Part shown: one piece after another, positions 1 to 25,532 of the stretch
How positions within the stretch are numbered: position 1 is the stretch's first letter
Layout: each line of letters begins with the position of its first letter
Assembly: GCA_028275775.1 (NCBI GenBank)
Contig: JAPWTZ010000007.1
Span: 1-25,532, forward strand
DNA length: 25,532 bases
Direction of reading: 5' to 3'
Origin: Candidatus Nanopusillus sp.
GTDB taxonomy: Archaea > Nanobdellota > Nanobdellia > Nanobdellales > Nanobdellaceae
The notes under the pieces: model-generated
Database searches by the model: none
The model's input: the letters and a program-made list of their open reading frames with translations, nothing else
Told to the model about the DNA's origin: nothing
Translations under genes and position numbers: made by a program

Positions 1-396
<396 letters not shown>

Positions 397-470: not shown

Positions 471-485
471 ATACTCTACATATGT

Positions 486-520
486 GCCATGTACATCATA
501 TGGTATATGATGTACATGGC
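486..520. repeat. Perfect 16-bp inverted repeat with a 3-nt spacer (GCCATGTACATCATAT-GGT-ATATGATGTACATGGC)
   Basis: Read directly: 486-501 is the exact reverse complement of 505-520. It lies between the eL41 stop codon (565) and the 16S leader, on the transcribed side of both. Confidence 0.9.
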
Positions 521-564
521 TATATTAACACAATATTACTATAATATTTTAAAAACTTTGATAT

Positions 565-681
565 TTATAAAGCTCTCATTCTAGCTATTTTTCTTAATCT
601 TTTTTCTTCTCTAATTCTTCTTCTCTGCCATTTCCATCTAGATCTTAAGTATTTTTTCCATCTTCTAGAACTTCTTCTCAT
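565..681 (-). CDS. rpl41e: Ribosomal protein eL41 (L41e), 38 aa; absent from the supplied ORF track (too short)
   Basis: Manual translation of the minus strand, ATG at 681-679 to TAA at 567-565, gives MRRSSRRWKKYLRSRWKWQRRRIREEKRLRKIARMRAL. It is extremely basic. The SSRRWKK...RxRWKW...RR motif matches archaeal L41e sequences as I remember them. Confidence 0.75.
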   Translation of the reverse strand: MRRSSRRWKKYLRSRWKWQRRRIREEKRLRKIARMRAL

Positions 682-8341: not shown

Positions 8342-9091
8342 CTATAAATTGCTAACCTTATATTCATGTAAAATAGATTTTTTCATTAGATCTTTTATTT
8401 CTATAGCTTTTTCTAATGCTAAATTTAATGCATCATTTAATTCCTTACTTGAAATTTCTCCATCCAATTGTATTAAAGTAAATTTCTTCTCAGAAGGAAT
8501 TATTGCAACCGGTATATCTGTAGCTCTTCCTTCTCCATAATATTCTATATATTTAGATTTTTCAGGATCTTTCTTTAATTTTTCAGAATCATAATCTTCT
8601 TCTTCCTTATTTAAATCTGCAACAATTCTTTCTCCAATTTTTCCAACTGCTAAACCTACTACTAAATCTTTCATTGGAATACCTGCTAAGGATAATGCTA
8701 AAGATGCAGCATTTATACTTGCAGTCCTTGTTCCAGCATCTGCATTTAATATTTCAACATATACATCTATAATACTTCCAGGAATTTCTTCTAATAATAA
8801 TGCTGGTTCTAATGCTCTTTTAATTACTTCAGATAATTCAATTTCTCTTCTACTTGGTGTAGGCTTTTTCCTTTCAGGTGTAGAAAATGTTAACATATTG
8901 TATCTAACCCTTAAGAATGCTTTATCATAATCTAAAGACATTTTTGAAGGTTTTGGTCCATATACAGCAGCTAATGCAACAGTATCACCAAAAGAAAATA
9001 TTGCAGATCCTTTTGCATTATCTATTACATTTAACTTTATATTTATTTTCCTTAATTCATTATATTCTCTACCATCAAATCTTTTTACCAT
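8342..9091 (-). CDS. rrp41: Exosome complex exonuclease Rrp41 (RNase PH-like)
   Basis: RFDGREYNELRKINIKLNVIDNAKGSAIFSFGDTVALAAVYGP... and ...NADAGTRTASINAASLALSLAGIPMKDLV... are the RNase PH / Rrp41 signatures. Confidence 0.9.
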   Translation of the reverse strand: MVKRFDGREYNELRKINIKLNVIDNAKGSAIFSFGDTVALAAVYGPKPSKMSLDYDKAFLRVRYNMLTFSTPERKKPTPSRREIELSEVIKRALEPALLLEEIPGSIIDVYVEILNADAGTRTASINAASLALSLAGIPMKDLVVGLAVGKIGERIVADLNKEEEDYDSEKLKKDPEKSKYIEYYGEGRATDIPVAIIPSEKKFTLIQLDGEISSKELNDALNLALEKAIEIKDLMKKSILHEYKVSNL

Positions 9092-9093
9092 TT

Positions 9094-9693
9094 TTATTTA
9101 TTTTCCAAAATTTCTTTAACCTTTTCAGTTAACCCCCTTTTATAAGAATTATTTATAACAAATCTAATAATATCTACTGCCTTTAATATATCATTTACAT
9201 TACCATTTAAATATATTCTACCGTTCTTTCCAATTATTATATCAATTTTTAAATATTCTTTAATTAAATTTAACATTGAAGAATTCTTCCCAATTAATCT
9301 TGGAATTCTTGCAGGATCTACTTTTAATATTAATCCATCATTTAATTTTTCCTTTTTCTTAATTTCTAAATCTATTAATTTATTTTTTGTCATTCTTATA
9401 ATTTGACATAATATATAATCTCCATAAGTATATAAATCATTTGGATCTACTCCAGTATCTTTTAAAGATAATTTTCCTACATATGGAGAATTTATATCAA
9501 TTAGCCATCCATTTGATAATACATCAATTACTTTTCCAATTACAATATCATTTACTTCTGGCATGTAATATCCAAAAAGCCTTGTGGTTTTATCCTCATT
9601 TACTAATAATATATATTTTGAATAATAATTATTTTCCCTTTCATATGAATTAATATCTTTTTTCTTTAAGTTATCTCCAGGTATTAATATCAT
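9094..9693 (-). CDS. rrp4: Exosome RNA-binding subunit Rrp4 (S1 + KH)
   Basis: ILIPGD..., YMPEVNDIVIGKVIDVLSNGWLIDINSPYVGKL (S1), and ARIPRLIGKNSSMLNLIKE...IIIGKNGRIYL (KH, GxxG). It lies 2 nt upstream of rrp41, which is the canonical order. Confidence 0.88.
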   Translation of the reverse strand: MILIPGDNLKKKDINSYERENNYYSKYILLVNEDKTTRLFGYYMPEVNDIVIGKVIDVLSNGWLIDINSPYVGKLSLKDTGVDPNDLYTYGDYILCQIIRMTKNKLIDLEIKKKEKLNDGLILKVDPARIPRLIGKNSSMLNLIKEYLKIDIIIGKNGRIYLNGNVNDILKAVDIIRFVINNSYKRGLTEKVKEILENK

Positions 9694-10838: not shown

Positions 10839-11477
10839 CTATCTTCTTGTACGTTCTGGTAATTCATATAGTGCTTCTGCAGGTGCTAGAATAAGGTACT
10901 TTCTGCGTCTTCTTCTTGGATATTTTTCTTTATGTACTGCCCAATATATAGCTGCAGCTATAATTCCTATTAATATAATCAATGGGAGTAAACCAGTAGA
11001 TATTAATACAAATAGTATTTCTAATATTATATTTTGAGCAGTTGCTCCAAATCCACTAAAATCTACTGAAGATGCGTACAGAAATGCAAATAGAACTGTA
11101 AGGGTTATAAATCCAACAATAACATTATGAGAATATTGTTTATATCTTTCAAATTCTTCATCCCCTCTATAAGGTTCTGATATGCTTGCCATCATTGCAA
11201 TTATCATTAAAATAAAAAATATAACAAGTACTTCAAAGAAGAAGAATGATATGAAATTTGATGTAAATATAACATCAGATATGCTATATAAATAATAAAA
11301 TGCTATTACTATAGAAATTATTGCATATAATTTTTCTGCATTAGGATTGTTTCTTCCAAATAAACCAATTTTTCTAAGGGATCCATATAACAATGAAAAT
11401 ACTAATAAAAATGGTGCTACAATTGTAAATATACCATATTCTGAAAATAAAGCATAAATAAATGATGCATAATCCAT
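10839..11477 (-). CDS. Membrane protein, paralog 3 of a tandem family (GxFxxVxPFLLVF N-terminal motif)
   Basis: 212 aa with an N-terminus of FIYALFSEYGIFTIVAPFLLVFSLLYGSLRKIGLFG. It has 4-5 hydrophobic helices and a basic tail (RRRRRK). Its start lies 1 nt after the upstream stop. Confidence 0.8.
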   Translation of the reverse strand: MDYASFIYALFSEYGIFTIVAPFLLVFSLLYGSLRKIGLFGRNNPNAEKLYAIISIVIAFYYLYSISDVIFTSNFISFFFFEVLVIFFILMIIAMMASISEPYRGDEEFERYKQYSHNVIVGFITLTVLFAFLYASSVDFSGFGATAQNIILEILFVLISTGLLPLIILIGIIAAAIYWAVHKEKYPRRRRRKYLILAPAEALYELPERTRR

Positions 11478-12084: not shown

Positions 12085-12656
12085 TTTGATTGTGAAGGTC
12101 CCGATCCTTGGCCTTTTGAAGGTTTTATAGCCCAATATGCTATTCCAAACATTATTGCTAGAATTATTATTGTTTCTATAAATGGTTGTAATGAAGAAAG
12201 TACTGGAGATGTTACTGCTGAAGCAACATAATTATATAAGCCAAGTATAAATATTACCATTAATGTAAAGATAATTATTGCAGCTGTTAATAATATTATT
12301 CTTGCTCTATTACCAAGTTGTATTTCTCCGCTCTTTTCTTCTCTCTGTAAAAATGGAGAAATTGCTAATATGAGGAAAAATACTGTTAATAAAAATAAAA
12401 CTATATATGGAATTAATGTTCTTAATGATAATACAACATTTGCAGATCCAACTATAAAAAATCCAGTAGCTGCAGATACAATTGATACTAAACTCCTTGT
12501 AACCTTTCCTTTATCTCCTTCAGCAAAAGGATCCCCCAAAATTTTATACTTACTTAATATACCATACATCACAGCATAAACTAATAGAAATGGTAATATA
12601 ACATTAAAGAATCCAAGGTTATTCAATAATGTTATAAGTATATCATAAAATGCCAT
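12081..12656 (-). CDS. Membrane protein, paralog 1 of the tandem family
   Basis: 191 aa with N-terminus MAFYDILITLLNNLGFFNVILPFLLVYAVMYGILSKYKILG. It has 4-5 hydrophobic helices and a Gly/Ser/Lys tail. Confidence 0.8.
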   Translation of the reverse strand: MAFYDILITLLNNLGFFNVILPFLLVYAVMYGILSKYKILGDPFAEGDKGKVTRSLVSIVSAATGFFIVGSANVVLSLRTLIPYIVLFLLTVFFLILAISPFLQREEKSGEIQLGNRARIILLTAAIIIFTLMVIFILGLYNYVASAVTSPVLSSLQPFIETIIILAIMFGIAYWAIKPSKGQGSGPSQSK

Positions 12657-12682
12657 ATTTAAAAATAATATTTCATAATTTA

Positions 12683-12895
12683 TTAATCTTTATCTAATAT
12701 TTCTTGATAATATATAGCATTTGTAGGGCATGCCTTTGCGGCAATTTTTATATCTTCTATATCTTCTTCAGAAGAAATTATATTATTTTTTATTACTATT
12801 CTATTATTTTCAATTGAAAAAATATTTTTATTTATCAAATAGCATGCCAAACAATTTATACATTTACTATAATCAATATCTACTATATATTTCAT
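12683..12895 (-). CDS. Small single-cluster [4Fe-4S]-type ferredoxin (paralog B)
   Basis: 70 aa with C-I-N-C-L-A-C (CxxCxxC) plus a distal A-C-P-T-N-A-I. That gives four Cys ligands for one cluster. Confidence 0.8.
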   Translation of the reverse strand: MKYIVDIDYSKCINCLACYLINKNIFSIENNRIVIKNNIISSEEDIEDIKIAAKACPTNAIYYQEILDKD

Positions 12896-12898
12896 TCA

Positions 12899-13108
12899 TT
12901 AATCTTTTATTTCTTCTACCTTAATTGAATGTGTTGGGCATGCAACTTCAGCATCTCTAGCTTTTTGTATTAAATTTGGATCTTCTATAATTTCAATTTT
13001 AGCTTTTGCTTTTCCATCAGAATCAAATTCATATATTTCTGGTGCAATTGCAATGCATGTTCCACAACCAATGCAGGTGTTTTTATCAACCCATGTTTTT
13101 ATTTTCAT
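12899..13108 (-). CDS. Small single-cluster [4Fe-4S]-type ferredoxin (paralog A)
   Basis: 69 aa with C-I-G-C-G-T-C-IAIAPE...FD.DGKA and a distal VACPTHSI. This matches the Thermotoga/Pyrococcus-type mono-cluster ferredoxin pattern. Confidence 0.85.
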   Translation of the reverse strand: MKIKTWVDKNTCIGCGTCIAIAPEIYEFDSDGKAKAKIEIIEDPNLIQKARDAEVACPTHSIKVEEIKD

Positions 13109-13159
13109 CTAAAATATATCAATGTTATATTTTATAAATATTAAAAACATAAATAGAGC

Positions 13160-13987
13160 GTGGAATTAAATGATATTTTTGTTAGAGTAACAGATATAAC
13201 AGATTATATTTTTTGTCCTAGAAAAGTTTATTTGAAAAGGGTTTTGGGATATTCTGAAGAAGATAATGAGCAAAAATTATTTGGATCTATTGTTCATTCT
13301 TTATTTGATAAGATAAATGAAAAAGAAAAGGAAATAATATTTAATATAAAAGAGTTTGTTGAATATGAAAAAATATTAAATTTATATAATAGTTTTTTAA
13401 TAAAATTATTAGAAGAATCTATAAAAGAATTTGAAGAACAAATAAAAAATTTAAATTTAGATAAAAATGATATAAAAATAAAGGCATATAGTTATGTAAT
13501 AAAAGATATAGAAGATAGGGCAAAAAATGTATTTAATTTTATGAAAGATAAAGATTTATATGGGATAGAATTATGGGAATTCTTAGAACCAAAAATAAAG
13601 ACAGAACTTGATGTTACATCTTTAAAATATAATATAGTTGGAAGGGTTGATAGAGTAGAAATATATAAAAAATATATAATACCATATGAAATAAAATCAG
13701 GATTTTTTAGGAGAGAACATATTACGCAACTATATTCATATTATTTATTATTGAAGGATGAATTTCCAAATTATGATATAAGAAAAGGTATATTATTATA
13801 TGCAAAGGATAATCATAAAATAGAAATAGAGTTTAGAAATAATAATGAAATAAAGAAAATACTTGATATAAAAGATAAAATAATTGATATGATTGATAAA
13901 AAAGAAGATCCTGGAAAGAAATTTTCAGAAAAATGCAAAAAATGCGCATTTTATAATATTTGTTGGAAAAATGGAAATAAAAATTGA
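13160..13987 (+). CDS. Cas4-like / RecB-family PD-(D/E)xK nuclease with a four-Cys Fe-S cluster; stand-alone, with no cas genes or array in the window
   Basis: N-terminal ITDYIFCPRKVYL (Cys 1). Nuclease motifs are GRVDRVE and PYEIKSG (D...ExK) plus QLYSYYLLL (QxxxY). The C-terminal CKKCAFYNIC supplies Cys 2-4. The apparent start codon is GTG, and no in-frame ATG lies upstream. Confidence 0.82.
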   Translation: MELNDIFVRVTDITDYIFCPRKVYLKRVLGYSEEDNEQKLFGSIVHSLFDKINEKEKEIIFNIKEFVEYEKILNLYNSFLIKLLEESIKEFEEQIKNLNLDKNDIKIKAYSYVIKDIEDRAKNVFNFMKDKDLYGIELWEFLEPKIKTELDVTSLKYNIVGRVDRVEIYKKYIIPYEIKSGFFRREHITQLYSYYLLLKDEFPNYDIRKGILLYAKDNHKIEIEFRNNNEIKKILDIKDKIIDMIDKKEDPGKKFSEKCKKCAFYNICWKNGNKN

Positions 13988-14735
13988 TACTAGAAAAAGT
14001 ATATATGAAAATATAAATGAAATATATGAAAAAATAAAAGAATTAAAAAATAAAAAACAAAAAATAGAAAAATTGATAAAGGAATTGGAAGAAAAGTTAA
14101 ATAATATTGAGGAAAAAATAATTATTGAAAAAAAGAAGGAAGAAATTAAAAGAAATAAAAAATGGTATGAGAAATTTAGATGGATGTTTACAACAAATAA
14201 TTTTCTATTAATTGCTGGAAAAGATTCTATTACAAATGAAATTATTATAAATAAATATTTAGAAAAAAATGATTTGGTATTTCATGCAGATATTATAGGA
14301 TCTCCTTTTGGTATATTAAAAAATGGAAGGAATGCAAGTGAAATAGATATATATGAAGCTGCAAAATTTGTTGGATCATATTCTAGAGCATGGAAAAATA
14401 AATTATCTTCTATAGATGTATATTATGTATATCCAGAACAAGTATCAAAAAAGGCACCTTCTGGAATGTATTTAAAAAAAGGGTCATTTATGATATATGG
14501 AGAAAAGAATTATATAAAAGTGAATTTAGAAATTGCATTGGCGTTTGAAGATTATAATATTATTCCAGGTGTACCTGAAAGTATAAAGGATAAATATAAA
14601 AGATATGTTATATTAATTCCTGGAAATAAAAAGCCAATTGATATTGCAAAACAATTAGAAAATATTTTTAAGGTTGATTATAATATCATATTAGGATATC
14701 TTCCTGGTGATAGTGATATACTATCTATCAAGTAA
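13971..14735 (+). CDS. NFACT-family protein, C-terminal half only (coiled coil + NFACT-R/DUF814 + C-terminal region); Rqc2/FbpA homolog fragment
   Basis: KKWYEKFRWMFTTNNFLLIAGKDSITNEIIINKYLEKNDLVFHADIIGSPFGILKNG...EAAKFVGSYSRAWK...DVYYVYPEQVSKKAPSGMYLKKGSFMIYGEKNY is the DUF814/NFACT-R signature. I chose the start at M27 of the track ORF (ATG 13971), which overlaps the Cas4-like gene by 17 nt. There is no NFACT-N or HhH region. Confidence 0.82.
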   Translation: MEIKIDTRKSIYENINEIYEKIKELKNKKQKIEKLIKELEEKLNNIEEKIIIEKKKEEIKRNKKWYEKFRWMFTTNNFLLIAGKDSITNEIIINKYLEKNDLVFHADIIGSPFGILKNGRNASEIDIYEAAKFVGSYSRAWKNKLSSIDVYYVYPEQVSKKAPSGMYLKKGSFMIYGEKNYIKVNLEIALAFEDYNIIPGVPESIKDKYKRYVILIPGNKKPIDIAKQLENIFKVDYNIILGYLPGDSDILSIK

Positions 14736-14770: not shown

Positions 14771-16696
14771 ATGAATAACAGAGTAGTAGTAACAATAAGA
14801 AAATTGTTTGGTTTTTTATTAGGAATAGTATTGTTAGCATTTGGAATACATTCACAACAATTATTAATAGAACCACAAACACAAACATTATTAGCAAATG
14901 CAGCAAATAATTTAACATTTACAATAAAATTATATGGAGTAGAACAGGTACCTGAAGAGGCATATATGTACTTTAATATATATGCACCAAATGGACAATT
15001 AATATATCAATATTATGAACCAATATCAGTATGTACAGGATTAAATATATATCAAGTATCAGTAAATCCTTTAGAATTAGAGAATTTAGTACAACAGTAT
15101 AGTTCAGTAAGTTCATGTACATATTATGGATGTTCAACACAACAATATTATAATTTCACAGTACAGGTAAATGTAACATTATTATATCCATCATGTCCAG
15201 AATATGTAACAGCAGAACAAACATATAATATAACATTTGTACCATATAATTTAACATTATCAATAGTACAATTACCAGAAGTAATTTCACAACAACAAGC
15301 AGAACAATATGGAATAAATGTAGAATCAGTAGTATATTTACAAAATGTTGAAACAAATATACAATCTTCAACATTAACATTAACATTATATAATTCACAA
15401 GGAAATATTATATATCAAACACAAGAAAATGTAAATTTACAACCTGGAGAAAACTTATTAACAGTAAATATACCAAACTATTATTTAGAAAATGTACAAG
15501 GACAAATGTATGTATTAGAACAATTGAATGTTGTATTATCTAATGGACAAGTATTAACACAACAAGCAGAACAATCATTCTATATATCAAATAGTCAAAA
15601 TGGAGAAAATATACAAGTAATTTCAATATCACCAAACTTCAATTCATTAACTAATTTAATTAATTCTATATATAATGTAGAAGTATTAATGGAGAATCCA
15701 GGTTATCAAACAGTAAATGCAACAGTTCAAATGTTAGTATATGATCAATATGGAGATTTAGTATATAATTTACAAGGTTCACAAACAATATCTCCAAATT
15801 CTCAAGGAGAAGTAATATTACCATTAAATACAATAGGATTACAACCAGGATATTATACAATAATATTATATGTATATCAAAATGGAGTAGAAGTATATCA
15901 ATATAATTATACAATAACAATAAATGAACAACAAATACAACCAGTAAATGTATTAAGTGTATATACAAATACATTTAATGTAAAACCAGGACAATTTGTA
16001 GAATTATATGTAAATTTAGAATCTAATTTGCCAATGAATATACAGGTACAACCAATAGTAGAATCAGAAGAATTAAATATATTCCAGCAATTATCAACAA
16101 TAACATTATCACCAAATCAAGTAACACAATTACCAGTAGTAATATATGTTCCAGAGAATTTAATGGCAGGATATTATCCAATAGAATTTGTATTTAATTA
16201 TAATGGAATATCACAAACATATACATATAATTTATATGTAAATGGAACAAAGATAGTACCAAAACCAATAAGTGCATCATTGGTTGGATATGTACCATTA
16301 AAATATGGACAAAATTCAACAATATACTTAGTAATAAGTTCAAATACAACACAGATATATAATTTATTAATACAGGCATATGCTGTTGGAGGAGAAGTAT
16401 ATCCAGAACAAGAAGAAATACAAATAGGAGGTATATATAGTGAAAAAATACCATTAAATGTAACTGCAGAAAGTAATAATGTAACAGTATATGTAAATAT
16501 AATAGATCAACAAACAGGAAAATTATTATATTCATTAAATGAAACATATTCAGTATCTCAAGTACCTTCTGTACCATTATTATCATCAGAATTAATATTC
16601 TGGATATTAGTAATATTGGCAATAATAATAATAGCTGCAGTATTAATAGAATCAAGAAAAGGAGGTAAAAAGGAAAGGGAAAAAGCTGAAGAATAA
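14771..16696 (+). CDS. Large secreted/surface protein (S-layer- or adhesin-like): N-terminal signal/anchor, repeated beta-rich modules, C-terminal TM anchor with a basic tail
   Basis: 641 aa. The N-terminal hydrophobic segment is LFGFLLGIVLLAFGI, and the C-terminal TM is LIFWILVILAIIIIAAVLI followed by SRKGGKKEREKAEE. The body is rich in Q/N/Y/V/T and poor in Lys/Arg/Asp. It carries at least a dozen N-x-S/T sequons. Module-like segments recur, e.g. LYNSQGNIIYQTQENVNLQPGENLLTVNIP and VYDQYGDLVYNLQGSQTISPNSQGEVILPL. Confidence 0.85.
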   Translation: MNNRVVVTIRKLFGFLLGIVLLAFGIHSQQLLIEPQTQTLLANAANNLTFTIKLYGVEQVPEEAYMYFNIYAPNGQLIYQYYEPISVCTGLNIYQVSVNPLELENLVQQYSSVSSCTYYGCSTQQYYNFTVQVNVTLLYPSCPEYVTAEQTYNITFVPYNLTLSIVQLPEVISQQQAEQYGINVESVVYLQNVETNIQSSTLTLTLYNSQGNIIYQTQENVNLQPGENLLTVNIPNYYLENVQGQMYVLEQLNVVLSNGQVLTQQAEQSFYISNSQNGENIQVISISPNFNSLTNLINSIYNVEVLMENPGYQTVNATVQMLVYDQYGDLVYNLQGSQTISPNSQGEVILPLNTIGLQPGYYTIILYVYQNGVEVYQYNYTITINEQQIQPVNVLSVYTNTFNVKPGQFVELYVNLESNLPMNIQVQPIVESEELNIFQQLSTITLSPNQVTQLPVVIYVPENLMAGYYPIEFVFNYNGISQTYTYNLYVNGTKIVPKPISASLVGYVPLKYGQNSTIYLVISSNTTQIYNLLIQAYAVGGEVYPEQEEIQIGGIYSEKIPLNVTAESNNVTVYVNIIDQQTGKLLYSLNETYSVSQVPSVPLLSSELIFWILVILAIIIIAAVLIESRKGGKKEREKAEE

Positions 16697-16703: not shown

Positions 16704-16751
16704 TCTGTTAGCTTTAATTCATCATTTTTCAGCCTGGGACGGTTTCTTCAT
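16704..16751 (-). ncRNA. Candidate C/D-box sRNA (C-12 nt-D'-3 nt-C'-11 nt-D)
   Basis: The minus strand reads AUGAAGA (C, 16751-16745), AACCGUCCCAGG, CUGA (D', 16732-16729), AAA, AUGAUGA (C', 16725-16719), AUUAAAGCUAA, CAGA (D, 16707-16704). The internal boxes are canonical and the 12-nt spacing is canonical. Each terminal box deviates at one position. It sits in a G+C-enriched island in a convergent intergenic region. Confidence 0.55.
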
Positions 16752-16753
16752 TT

Positions 16754-16807
16754 TGTACCCCTACTAACTCAACCTTTTTCATCTATCTAAGGTTACCCTA
16801 GTAGGGG
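16754..16807 (-). ncRNA. Imperfect hairpin followed by an ACA triplet (H/ACA-like element or 3'-UTR structure), contiguous with the C/D candidate
   Basis: A 9-bp stem pairs CCCCUACUA (16807-16799) with UAGUAGGGG (16766-16758). Next is a 4x4 internal loop (GGGU/GAGU), then a 4-bp stem AACC/GGUU, then a 16-nt loop UUAGAUAGAUGAAAAA. ACA sits at 16756-16754, exactly 14 nt after the upper stem. The element starts 1 nt after the TAG of the 16808-17335 gene. Confidence 0.35.
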
Positions 16808-17335
16808 CTATATATATCTTAGAAAATTAATTATTATATCTTTATTTAAAACTTCTGGATGGAACAATGAAAAATATATATTTTTATATTTATATAATAC
16901 AGGAATATTTTCTACTTTTCCAATTATATAGAATTTTTCATCAATCTTTGGAATTTTTGTTATTAAAAAATATGCTTCAAAATCTTTATTAATTATTTTA
17001 TCTTTATTTATTACTTTTACATAATATTTTCCAATCAATTCTTTATCTTCAAAATCATAATTTAATAATTTTATTAATATTTGGCTTCCAGAACATATTG
17101 CGAGAGTTTTTATATTGTTTTTAATTATAAATTCAAAATTCTTTATATAGTTTAAATAATCAAAATCCATTATTGCAGTACCTGTTATTATTATTTTTTC
17201 AAAATATTCATTTATTTTATCTTTATATGAAAAAACTTTATAATTAATGTTTAATTCTTTTAAAATATTTATTATTGGATATAAAAATTCATATTTTGAT
17301 AATTCTTCTTTATTTGTATGAATTATTCCAATCAT
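16808..17335 (-). CDS. Class I glutamine amidotransferase, stand-alone small subunit (GuaA-subunit-A-like)
   Basis: 175 aa with nucleophile elbow LAICSGSQIL (G-x-C-x-G-x-Q type) and C-terminal LFHPEV (His-x-Glu of the triad). The start forms an ATGA overlap with the upstream gene (17332-17335). Confidence 0.75.
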   Translation of the reverse strand: MIGIIHTNKEELSKYEFLYPIINILKELNINYKVFSYKDKINEYFEKIIITGTAIMDFDYLNYIKNFEFIIKNNIKTLAICSGSQILIKLLNYDFEDKELIGKYYVKVINKDKIINKDFEAYFLITKIPKIDEKFYIIGKVENIPVLYKYKNIYFSLFHPEVLNKDIIINFLRYI

Positions 17336-24468: not shown

Positions 24469-25532
24469 TTATATATTAAATGTTTTTCTCTGATAATCTT
24501 CTAAGAAAAATATATCTTCTCCCAATGTATATCCATAATCTGATATAATATTATAATATGATGCCTTTTTATTTATATCTCCATGATTTGGTATTATATA
24601 TTCAGGATTTAACATTTTTAATAACATTATATGATCTTGACTTTTTGCATGACCAGATACATGTATATCCTTTATTATTTCTGCTTTTCTTCTCTTTAAT
24701 CTTTCTTCCAATATTTTTCTATTTGCTTCATTTATTGGATGCGGAATTACATTATTTGCAAATATTACTGTTGTATTACTTAGATCAAAATTATATTCTC
24801 CCCTTGCCAATCTATCTAAAACAGAACCAGGTTCTCCTTGATGTCCAGTAACAATTAATAAATATTCTTCCTTATTTTTTTCTATCCTTTCCAAAACCTT
24901 TTTATAATCTCTTGGATCAAAATATACTTCTGCCTCTTTAGAAAAATTATATAAATCAATATTTTCTGCAGCACTAATATATTTTCCCAAACTTCTTCCA
25001 ATAAATATTGGTTTTCTATTTATTTCTTTAGATAATTCAATTATTGATTTTAATCTTGCAATATGGGATGAAAATGTTGTTATAATTATCCCCTTTGTAT
25101 CTATTGAATTTAATACATCATATAACATATATTTTTCAATAATTTCTGATTGAGATTTTGAATTTTCATCTGCTCTCGTTGTTTCAGAAATTAATAATAA
25201 AACACCTTCTTTTCCAATTTTCTTTAATTTTTCTTTATCAGGTTTTTTACCAATAATTGGAAAATTATCAAATTTAAAATCACCCGAAAATATTATATGA
25301 CCTTTATTTGTCTGAATATCAATCATTAATGATTGTGGGATTGAATGAGTAATATTAATAAAATTAATTGAAATATCTTCTGAAATTTTAATTGAGGAAT
25401 TTGGTGATATTTTCTTTAAATCATTTGGTAAAACAATTCCATATTCTTTTTCTTGTTGTTTTATTAATTCAATTGTATATGGAGATGCATAAATTGGAAC
25501 ATTATATTTTGGTGCAATAAAATTTACTGCTC
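24469..25532 (-). CDS. rnj: RNase J (beta-CASP metallo-beta-lactamase ribonuclease), partial; the N-terminus lies beyond the right window edge
   Basis: ITHSIPQSLMIDIQTNKGHIIFSGDFKFD, ...LLISETTRAD..., VTGHQGEP, and HVSGHAKSQDHIMLLKMLNPEYIIPNHGD. The track ORF starts at an internal Met (25326). My hand translation shows the frame stays open for all 68 upstream codons to the edge: AVNFIAPKYNVPIYASPYTIELIKQQ... Confidence 0.88.
   Translation of the reverse strand, partial: AVNFIAPKYNVPIYASPYTIELIKQQEKEYGIVLPNDLKKISPNSSIKISEDISINFINITHSIPQSLMIDIQTNKGHIIFSGDFKFDNFPIIGKKPDKEKLKKIGKEGVLLLISETTRADENSKSQSEIIEKYMLYDVLNSIDTKGIIITTFSSHIARLKSIIELSKEINRKPIFIGRSLGKYISAAENIDLYNFSKEAEVYFDPRDYKKVLERIEKNKEEYLLIVTGHQGEPGSVLDRLARGEYNFDLSNTTVIFANNVIPHPINEANRKILEERLKRRKAEIIKDIHVSGHAKSQDHIMLLKMLNPEYIIPNHGDINKKASYYNIISDYGYTLGEDIFFLEDYQRKTFNI

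Follow-up and report, generated by a model that had tools for sequence, protein, structure and literature searches.

Among the modified nucleotides of 23S ribosomal RNA (rRNA), the equivalent of Escherichia coli U1917 in helix 69 belongs to the small set of uridines whose pseudouridylation is known from across life, and the equivalent of G2251 in the P-loop is universally methylated. In the archaea H. volcanii and S. islandicus, the U1917 equivalent is pseudouridylated with an H/ACA guide RNA. Published criteria describe archaeal H/ACA RNAs by a lower stem of 7–9 bp, an ACA box 14–15 nt (up to 16) from the closing pair of the upper stem, a kink-turn (K-turn) or K-loop 5–6 bp above the pocket, about 10 layers in the GA stem (with 8–11 occurring naturally), and a 5′ guide of 5–8 nt and a 3′ guide of 5–6 nt, which flank an unpaired U-N of the target. 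Small RNAs (sRNAs) with C/D boxes have been identified by RNA-seq in N. equitans; the D′ guide of one of them, sRNA4, has a predicted target in the 23S sequence CUGGmGGCGG, and the D guide of another, sRNA14, had no predicted target (Randau 2012, supplementary table). Here we describe a locus at which RNAs of both kinds appear to stand side by side. It lies in a stretch of 25,532 nt from Candidatus Nanopusillus sp. (contig JAPWTZ010000007.1 of assembly GCA_028275775.1; hereafter the window), where the minus strand of the spacer between two convergent genes encodes a hairpin with an ACA triplet and, directly after it, the boxes of a C/D sRNA.

We consider it probable that this spacer holds two tandem rRNA-modification guide modules, an H/ACA guide for the U1917 equivalent and a C/D guide for the G2251 equivalent. 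The reading is built on the anatomy of the element, its conservation, its covariation and its complementarity to rRNA. The original prediction, which proposed a hairpin-ACA element joined to a C/D sRNA, had placed all the hairpin, ACA and C/D features correctly on the minus strand, and both halves of its dual reading have gained support: the H/ACA-like half from geometry, covariation and a match to helix 69, and the C/D half from boxes and a guide shared with N. equitans.

Conservation of the unit

The element lies between the stop codon of a gene for a glutamine amidotransferase (GATase; 175 amino acids, minus strand, 16808–17335) and a plus-strand open reading frame (ORF) of 641 amino acids that ends at 16696, in a spacer of 111 nt. 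Copies of the GATase with 92–96% identity occur in eight Candidatus Nanopusillus/Nanobsidianus genomes, and in these the element is almost invariant; three distinct single-base changes fall in the D guide and two in the lower stem, and a further one, from U to C, turns the basal G·U pair into G-C. More distant syntenic loci were found by homologue searches of the GATase and contig look-ups. In five of them, with GATase identities of 67–78%, the unit stands directly 3′ of the GATase stop codon: YN1 (L131), a Nanopusillaceae metagenome-assembled genome (L132), Nanobdella aerobiophila (L133/L134), L138 and L139. Conservation in relatives, which the original prediction had named as a check, was therefore found at 13 related loci, eight close and five divergent. 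At a further locus, L137 (GATase 59% identical), the convergent genes are kept, and the GATase is followed by two tandem C/D sRNAs (835–970) and no hairpin; L135 and L136 (59% and 43%) have neither hairpin nor C/D RNA at the syntenic locus. As judged from L137 and N. equitans, where C/D RNAs occur without the hairpin, the two modules are evolutionarily separable.

Across lineages, the upper stem, the GA...UGA of the loop, the two internal-loop strands as well as the ACA remain unchanged, while the lower stem varies by compensation: two adjacent pairs exchange C-G and U-A, three others show one-sided compatible changes, and several G·U intermediates occur. Over both helices, 98.7% of the alignment cells are paired, compared with 36–57% for slid partners. 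Folding of the 121-nt region gives z = -3.3 (none of 200 shuffles folds equally well). A descriptor of the H/ACA hairpin (K-loop, upper stem of at least 5 bp, ACA at 14–15 nt, lower stem of at least 7 bp) has this site as its sole match on both strands of the window and none in 40 shuffled windows, and a regular expression for C/D sRNAs likewise matches the window only here. An Rfam scan of the window returned only the 16S fragment above the gathering threshold, and a scan of the related loci gave no matches. The G+C island from which the original prediction started is real (40% in the element, 24% in the window), but it is modest, with similar values in several coding stretches.

These observations also bear on the simplest alternative, a hairpin between convergent genes that acts as a bidirectional terminator or stabilises mRNA, with the ACA and box motifs as chance occurrences in AT-rich sequence. 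The position would suit it, as would the folding of the plus strand (z = -2.6), yet archaeal termination proceeds by oligo-T and not by hairpins, and the literature describes oligo-T for nanoarchaea as well. Moreover, the motifs (K-loop GA/UGA, ACA, boxes) are strand-specific and stay invariant while the stem covaries, the descriptor and the C/D pattern are each unique to the site, and L137 has both convergent genes and C/D RNA yet no hairpin. We regard a mere terminator as highly implausible.

The hairpin and helix 69 of 23S rRNA

Drawn according to its proposed function, the hairpin consists of a 9-bp lower stem (one G·U and eight Watson-Crick pairs), a 5+5-nt pocket, a 6-bp upper stem and a 12-nt K-loop, with the ACA at 14 nt, the spacing already recognized in the original prediction. 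It lies within the published ranges for lower stem, ACA spacing, K-loop height, GA-stem layers and guide lengths, which supports its assignment as a putative archaeal H/ACA guide. The geometry of the apical loop is that of the C′/D′ K-loop of the adjacent sRNA, which makes it a predicted L7Ae site; its GA and UGA are invariant, while the intervening nucleotides and the 3b position (A/G/C) vary among lineages. In the GA stem, six Watson-Crick pairs are followed by N·A, G·A and A·G, giving nine layers, or ten in the window lineage when a bulged A is counted. L004 and L010 have an additional U that pairs with this A, which brings the GA stem to ten true pairs.

The pocket strands, AGGGU and GAGUU(A), match the YN1 23S sequence UAACUC-UG-ACCCU with 6+5 Watson-Crick pairs and no wobble, and the unpaired U of this target aligns to E. 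coli U1917. In a bipartite scan of the obtained rRNAs, the helix-69 site scores 11 and the next best site in the same register 5.5. As a control, two N. equitans H/ACA pockets reach only 8–8.5, with wobbles; these hairpins were considered as orthologues and set aside, as their pockets do not match YN1 helix 69. Among 3000 shuffled pockets, 20 score equally well anywhere in rRNA, and the chance that such a match would also land on a uridine pseudouridylated across life is much smaller. All lineages keep 10–11 pairs to helix 69, and their changes are confined to the edges of the guides: in Nanobdella, L138 and L139, a G replaces the A/U 5′ of AGGGU and gains a pair with C1924, and in L138 and L139, a U-to-A change in the 3′ guide costs one pair.

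This match also revises the original drawing of the hairpin. Its 9-bp stem stands, but the proposed 4×4 internal loop closes to 2×2 thermodynamically, and function fits a pocket of 5+5/6 nt, a 6-bp upper stem and a 12-nt K-loop; both the 4×4 pocket and a K-turn reading of the internal loop were dropped once the helix-69 match had been found. The reservation that the pocket strands measure only 4 nt falls away as well; the top of the '9-bp stem' and the wobble pairs flanking the loop belong to the guide strands. Likewise, the element does not start 1 nt after the TAG stop codon of the GATase gene; the lower stem begins at the G of this codon.

Several points weigh against the guide reading. The minimum free energy (MFE) fold closes the pocket to a 2×2 loop, and the pocket is at the small end of the known range. 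The GA stem of the YN1 and Nanobdella lineages has nine layers, where the productive value in Pyrococcus is ten, and in Nanobdella, the closing A-U pair is replaced by an A·A mismatch. The targets were checked on the 23S rRNA of relatives, that is, of YN1 for helix 69 and the P-loop and of Nanobdella for the P-loop only; these rRNAs were reached by walking from the antiporter gene adjoining 16S. Finally, the element has no match at E ≤ 10 to the Rfam H/ACA families, which is no defining failure, given that archaeal H/ACA RNAs are lineage-specific in sequence.

A pocket that is nearly shut in the MFE fold would also be compatible with a hairpin that merely binds L7Ae through its K-loop and stabilises the C/D sRNA or sets its 5′ end, without guiding pseudouridylation, in a role like that of the tRNA in tRNA-sRNA dicistrons. 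The hairpin is only 2 nt from box C, upstream tRNAs define sRNA 5′ ends in N. equitans, and the occurrence of the C/D sRNA without it in L137 and N. equitans marks the hairpin as an add-on. However, a stabiliser needs neither an invariant ACA at exactly 14 nt, nor invariant strands in the internal loop, nor 11 perfect pairs at a helix-69 uridine that is guide-modified in archaea. In addition, the changes at the pocket edges follow the target and not the pairing of the hairpin: in L138 and L139, the new G forms a G·A opposition within the hairpin, yet it pairs with C1924. On balance, we find a pure stabiliser unlikely.

Alternatively, the C/D sRNA may be real and the hairpin part of a non-guiding H/ACA-type ribonucleoprotein (RNP) with a chaperone or processing role, as for snR30/U17, or it may have a substrate other than helix 69. 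The small pocket and the GA stem of nine instead of ten layers in some lineages would fit such a role, as would a K-loop/ACA hairpin that YN1 and Nanobdella carry in their 16S leaders and for which no rRNA target is detectable. Set against this are the perfect match to helix 69 at its canonical site and the guide strands, which are better conserved than the rest of the hairpin, so that this option, too, seems quite improbable to us.

If the hairpin is an H/ACA guide, as we favour, L7Ae would occupy the apical K-loop, Cbf5 would bind the lower stem and the ACA through its PUA domain, and Nop10 and Gar1 would complete the particle. The pocket, partly shut in the free RNA by weak A-U and G·U pairs, would have to open for the substrate. 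Its strands would then pair with helix 69 around the unpaired U-G and place the U1917 equivalent in the active site of Cbf5 for conversion to pseudouridine (Psi). Under this reading, the helix-69 sequence expected in a Nanopusillus-type 23S rRNA is UAACUCUGACCCU.

The C/D sRNA and its guides

The second module has the layout of a C/D sRNA, including D′ and C′ boxes in the K-loop arrangement CUGA-AAA-AUGAUGA. Its C and D boxes, AUGAAGA and CAGA, had been described as deviations in the original prediction, a view that the comparison with N. equitans does not bear out: the pairing RUGAAGA...CAGA is read in eight sRNAs of the published table (sRNA8, 9, 14, 16, 17, 19, 21 and 23), so that AUGAAGA/CAGA is, by this comparison, the usual nanoarchaeal box variant. 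Position 5 of box C and position 2 of box D covary, with A·A in the window lineage and Nanobdella and G·U (AUGAGGA/CUGA) in the YN1 clade, which is the behaviour expected of a real K-turn pair. The D′ spacer measures 12 nt; the D spacer, 12 nt long in YN1 and Nanobdella, is one nucleotide shorter (11 nt) in the window lineage. Several archaeal C/D families of Rfam match below threshold (best snoPyro_CD, 17.2 bits, threshold 45, E = 0.31), as expected, because guides differ between species. Together, boxes, spacing and covariation support the assignment of this segment as a C/D sRNA.

For the D′ guide, the original prediction had given the target CCUGGGACGGUU. The actual match is GCUGGGGCGGCA, as the P-loop reads in the 23S rRNA of both YN1 and Nanobdella, with nine contiguous pairs (eight Watson-Crick and one G·U) that place N+5 on the second G, the equivalent of E. 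coli G2251. The P-loop flank deduced from perfect Watson-Crick pairing (CTGGGGCGGTT...) was rejected, the actual flank in the relatives being GGCA; a metagenome scan with the CTGGGGCGGTT... flank had returned at least 120 23S sequences, none of them recognisably nanoarchaeal among the matches listed. The duplex itself speaks against the assignment insofar as 39 of 150 shuffled D′ guides match rRNA at least as well. Since it is not significant alone, the P-loop assignment rests on conservation and on the precedent in N. equitans: the core GUCCCAG is shared with the D′ guide of sRNA4 (GGCUGUCCCAGG), and the guide is conserved from sRNA4 via L137 to the window, with N+5 at G2251.

The D guide is less stable in evolution. 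In the window lineage, it is AT-rich, measures 11 nt, and shows three different single substitutions among nine close genomes. The target that the original prediction had sought for it did not emerge: in the searched rRNA of relatives, it has no match better than those of shuffled guides, 35 of 150 of which equal it. Probably, this guide has decayed and lost its target in this lineage. The D guide of the YN1 clade, xGAGAGACGAx, forms 10–11 bp with the 23S sequence GUCGUCUCUC, which puts N+5 at E. coli 2509 (2 of 150 shuffles are as good). That of Nanobdella (L133, 3084–3134), AAGGAGUAGCUA, forms 9 bp with AGCUACUCC, with N+5 at E. coli U2438, and is identical to the D guide of N. equitans sRNA14 (AAGGAGUAGCUG) except for the last base; the Nanobdella D′ guide has 14 nt and pairs poorly with the P-loop. 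In L137, the P-loop guide is located on the first sRNA and a guide GAGAGACGA, directed to 23S at about E. coli 2505–2514, on the second, whereas the YN1 clade has both on one RNA. Guides appear to have been redistributed between sRNAs among these lineages.

In the proposed particle, the C/D K-turn and the C′/D′ K-loop would bind L7Ae, Nop5 and fibrillarin, and the D′ guide, paired with the P-loop, would direct 2′-O-methylation of the G2251 equivalent.

Transcription, locus and known systems

The GATase gene is the last of a minus-strand run that includes a 259-amino-acid ORF and a gene of the diphthamide-synthase family. The element is probably transcribed as the 3′ tail of this diphthamide-synthase/GATase operon or from a TTTAAA box within the end of the GATase gene. 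This box, 38–43 nt upstream of the hairpin, is conserved; since it lies in conserved coding sequence, however, its conservation does not distinguish an internal promoter from operon read-through. We infer that, once transcribed, assembly into RNPs would shield the RNAs from exonucleolytic trimming.

The 'fusion' of the two modules is seen at the level of the DNA, as a linker of 2 nt. Internal ACA boxes work in multi-hairpin archaeal H/ACA RNAs, and a joined RNA is sterically plausible for this reason. A tentative extension, which we hold possible though rather doubtful, is that the modules stay joined as an RNA of about 105 nt that assembles a Cbf5 and a fibrillarin particle, each nucleated by L7Ae, into an archaeal tandem composite guide RNP. 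Such an RNP would place both modifications, Psi1917 in helix 69 (domain IV) and Gm2251 in the P-loop (domain V), on one nascent 23S rRNA and might act as a folding chaperone as well. As an archaeal counterpart, independent in origin, of the composite small Cajal body-specific RNAs (scaRNAs) of eukaryotes, it would be of interest for the evolution of small nucleolar RNPs.

The coordinates of the unit and its parts are given in Table 1.

Table 1. Parts of the tandem unit in the window
Feature	Position	Strand	Remarks
Whole unit: H/ACA hairpin, 2-nt linker, C/D box sRNA	16704..16808	-	conserved in 8 close and 5 divergent loci
H/ACA hairpin module including ACA (putative)	16808-16754	-	about 55 nt; hairpin 16808-16757
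Lower stem, 5′ strand GCCCCUACU	16800..16808	-	starts with the final G of the TAG stop; pairs with 16765-16757
5′ pocket guide strand AGGGU	16795..16799	-	complements 23S ACCCU (E. coli 1919-1923); core invariant in 13/13 loci
Upper stem, 5′ strand AACCUU	16789..16794	-	pairs with 16776-16771; 6 Watson-Crick pairs separate pocket from K-loop
Apical K-loop AGAUAGAUGAAA, 12 nt	16777..16788	-	C′/D′-like: U-AGA, 3-4 variable nt, AUGAAA; tandem G·A pairs
Upper stem, 3′ strand AAGGUU	16771..16776	-	fold and alignment
3′ pocket guide strand GAGUU, extended by A16765 on opening of the top lower-stem pair	16766..16770	-	complements 23S (U)AACUC (E. coli 1911/1912-1916)
Lower stem, 3′ strand AGUAGGGGU	16757..16765	-	helix alignment
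ACA box	16754..16756	-	14 nt 3′ of closing pair A16794-U16771; invariant in 13/13 loci
Linker AA, 2 nt between ACA and box C	between 16754 and 16751	-	2 nt in all lineages
C/D sRNA (putative), box C to box D, 48 nt	16704-16751	-	AUGAAGA-12 nt-CUGA-AAA-AUGAUGA-11 nt-CAGA
Box C AUGAAGA	16745..16751	-	N. equitans sRNA variant; position 5 covaries with D position 2
D′ guide AACCGUCCCAGG, 12 nt	16733..16744	-	invariant in 9 close genomes; pairs with 23S P-loop CUGGGGCGG
Box D′ CUGA	16729..16732	-	pattern match
AAA loop, 3 nt	16726-16728	-	between D′ and C′
Box C′ AUGAUGA	16719..16725	-	pattern match
D guide AUUAAAGCUAA, 11 nt, probably decayed or orphan	16708..16718	-	polymorphic; no target
Box D CAGA	16704..16707	-	N. 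equitans variant; covariation

The 5′ end of the window lies within an archaeal 16S rRNA gene (1–396, minus strand), outside of which G+C amounts to about 24%, and the source contigs of the window lineage break at 16S. The 16S genes (window, L140 and L141) are unlinked to and divergent from the 23S genes; in YN1, some 6 kb separate 16S from 23S, which follows TGT, S19 and type IV secretion-like genes and is encoded on the opposite strand. Another hairpin (window 483–520, minus strand; L140 11171–11225; L141 about 11181–11236) precedes the 16S 5′ end by about 90 nt and follows a promoter-like box, TTTTTAAAATATTAT, at a distance of about 25 nt. In the window, it is a perfect 16-bp helix, GCCATGTACATCATAT-ACC-ATATGATGTACATGGC, followed by ACA; at the same leader position, YN1 and Nanobdella have a K-loop hairpin of H/ACA geometry that ends in ACA or AUA. 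The pockets of these leader hairpins gave no rRNA target. Between the antiporter gene and the 16S promoter, a conserved Lys/Arg-rich ORF of 38 amino acids (MRRSSRRWKKYLRSRWKWQRRRIREEKRLRK...; window about 560–676, minus strand; L140 11011–11127) has been annotated as a gene in several assemblies and may code for a small ribosomal or RNA-binding protein. The window further holds RNA-processing genes, namely for exosome Rrp4-like and RNase PH-like subunits and, as a fragment at the window end, for RNase J/beta-CASP, as well as a Cas4/Csa1-like PD-(D/E)XK nuclease gene that overlaps the gene of an NFACT-R protein (jointly listed at 8342–9693, 24469–25326 and 13160–14735). A region of about 500 nt (12656–13160) lacks ORFs of at least 80 amino acids and Rfam matches; repeated Cys-codon-rich segments on its minus strand suggest one or two small ferredoxin-like ORFs.

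In our literature searches, we found no description of small RNAs of the Nanopusillus/Nanobdella group, for which the unit appears to provide the first H/ACA guide and the first P-loop methylation guide. It suggests that these very reduced symbionts keep RNA-guided versions of Psi1917 and Gm2251, two of the most conserved rRNA modifications. It also offers a view of guide RNA evolution in progress, with a clade-restricted hairpin, guides shifted between one and two C/D RNAs, and one guide decaying.

Compared with the known archaeal helix-69 guides, H. volcanii sR-h45 (Psi1940/1942) and S. islandicus sR148 (U2060, E. coli 1917), the hairpin would address the equivalent of the same nucleotide and has in common with them the bipartite pocket, an L7Ae K-turn or K-loop and the ACA ruler of 14–15 nt. 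It differs in being a single K-loop hairpin of 55 nt with a minimal, partly self-paired 5+5 pocket, while sR-h45 has two stem-loops and guides 1915 as well, and sR148 belongs to an 'atypical' class. With the double-hairpin H/ACA RNA of N. equitans, it has no sequence similarity. The C/D module is closest to N. equitans sRNA4, with which it shares the GUCCCAG core, the predicted P-loop target and the 12-nt D′ spacer, and to the RUGAAGA/CAGA class, with which it shares A·A in place of U·U in the K-turn; sRNA4, however, has canonical AUGAUGA/CUGA terminal boxes, another D guide and no upstream hairpin, whereas the window sRNA has an 11-nt D guide without a target.

As a pair, the modules resemble dicistronic tRNA-C/D sRNA units and archaeal sRNA clusters, in that a structured, protein-bound RNA would lie directly upstream, probably co-transcribed, and the 5′ end of the sRNA may depend on it. 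Unlike in the tRNA dicistrons, the upstream module would be an H/ACA guide instead of a tRNA, there is no evident RNase Z-type cleavage site, and the gap between ACA and box C is only 2 nt. In the literature searched, the coverage of which is incomplete, we found no report of an archaeal H/ACA-C/D tandem, composite or dicistronic RNA. In eukaryotes, composite scaRNAs of the U85 type nest, within a single RNA, an H/ACA domain between boxes C and D, and carry CAB boxes; the likeness to them lies in one locus with both guide domains, and the difference in the order, as the modules of the window, known here from the genomic sequence, are tandem and not nested. A review describes scaRNAs as a subset of H/ACA RNAs that is not present in archaea. 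In sum, each module is new, but of a well-known type, and the tight tandem arrangement is the only unusual aspect of this locus.

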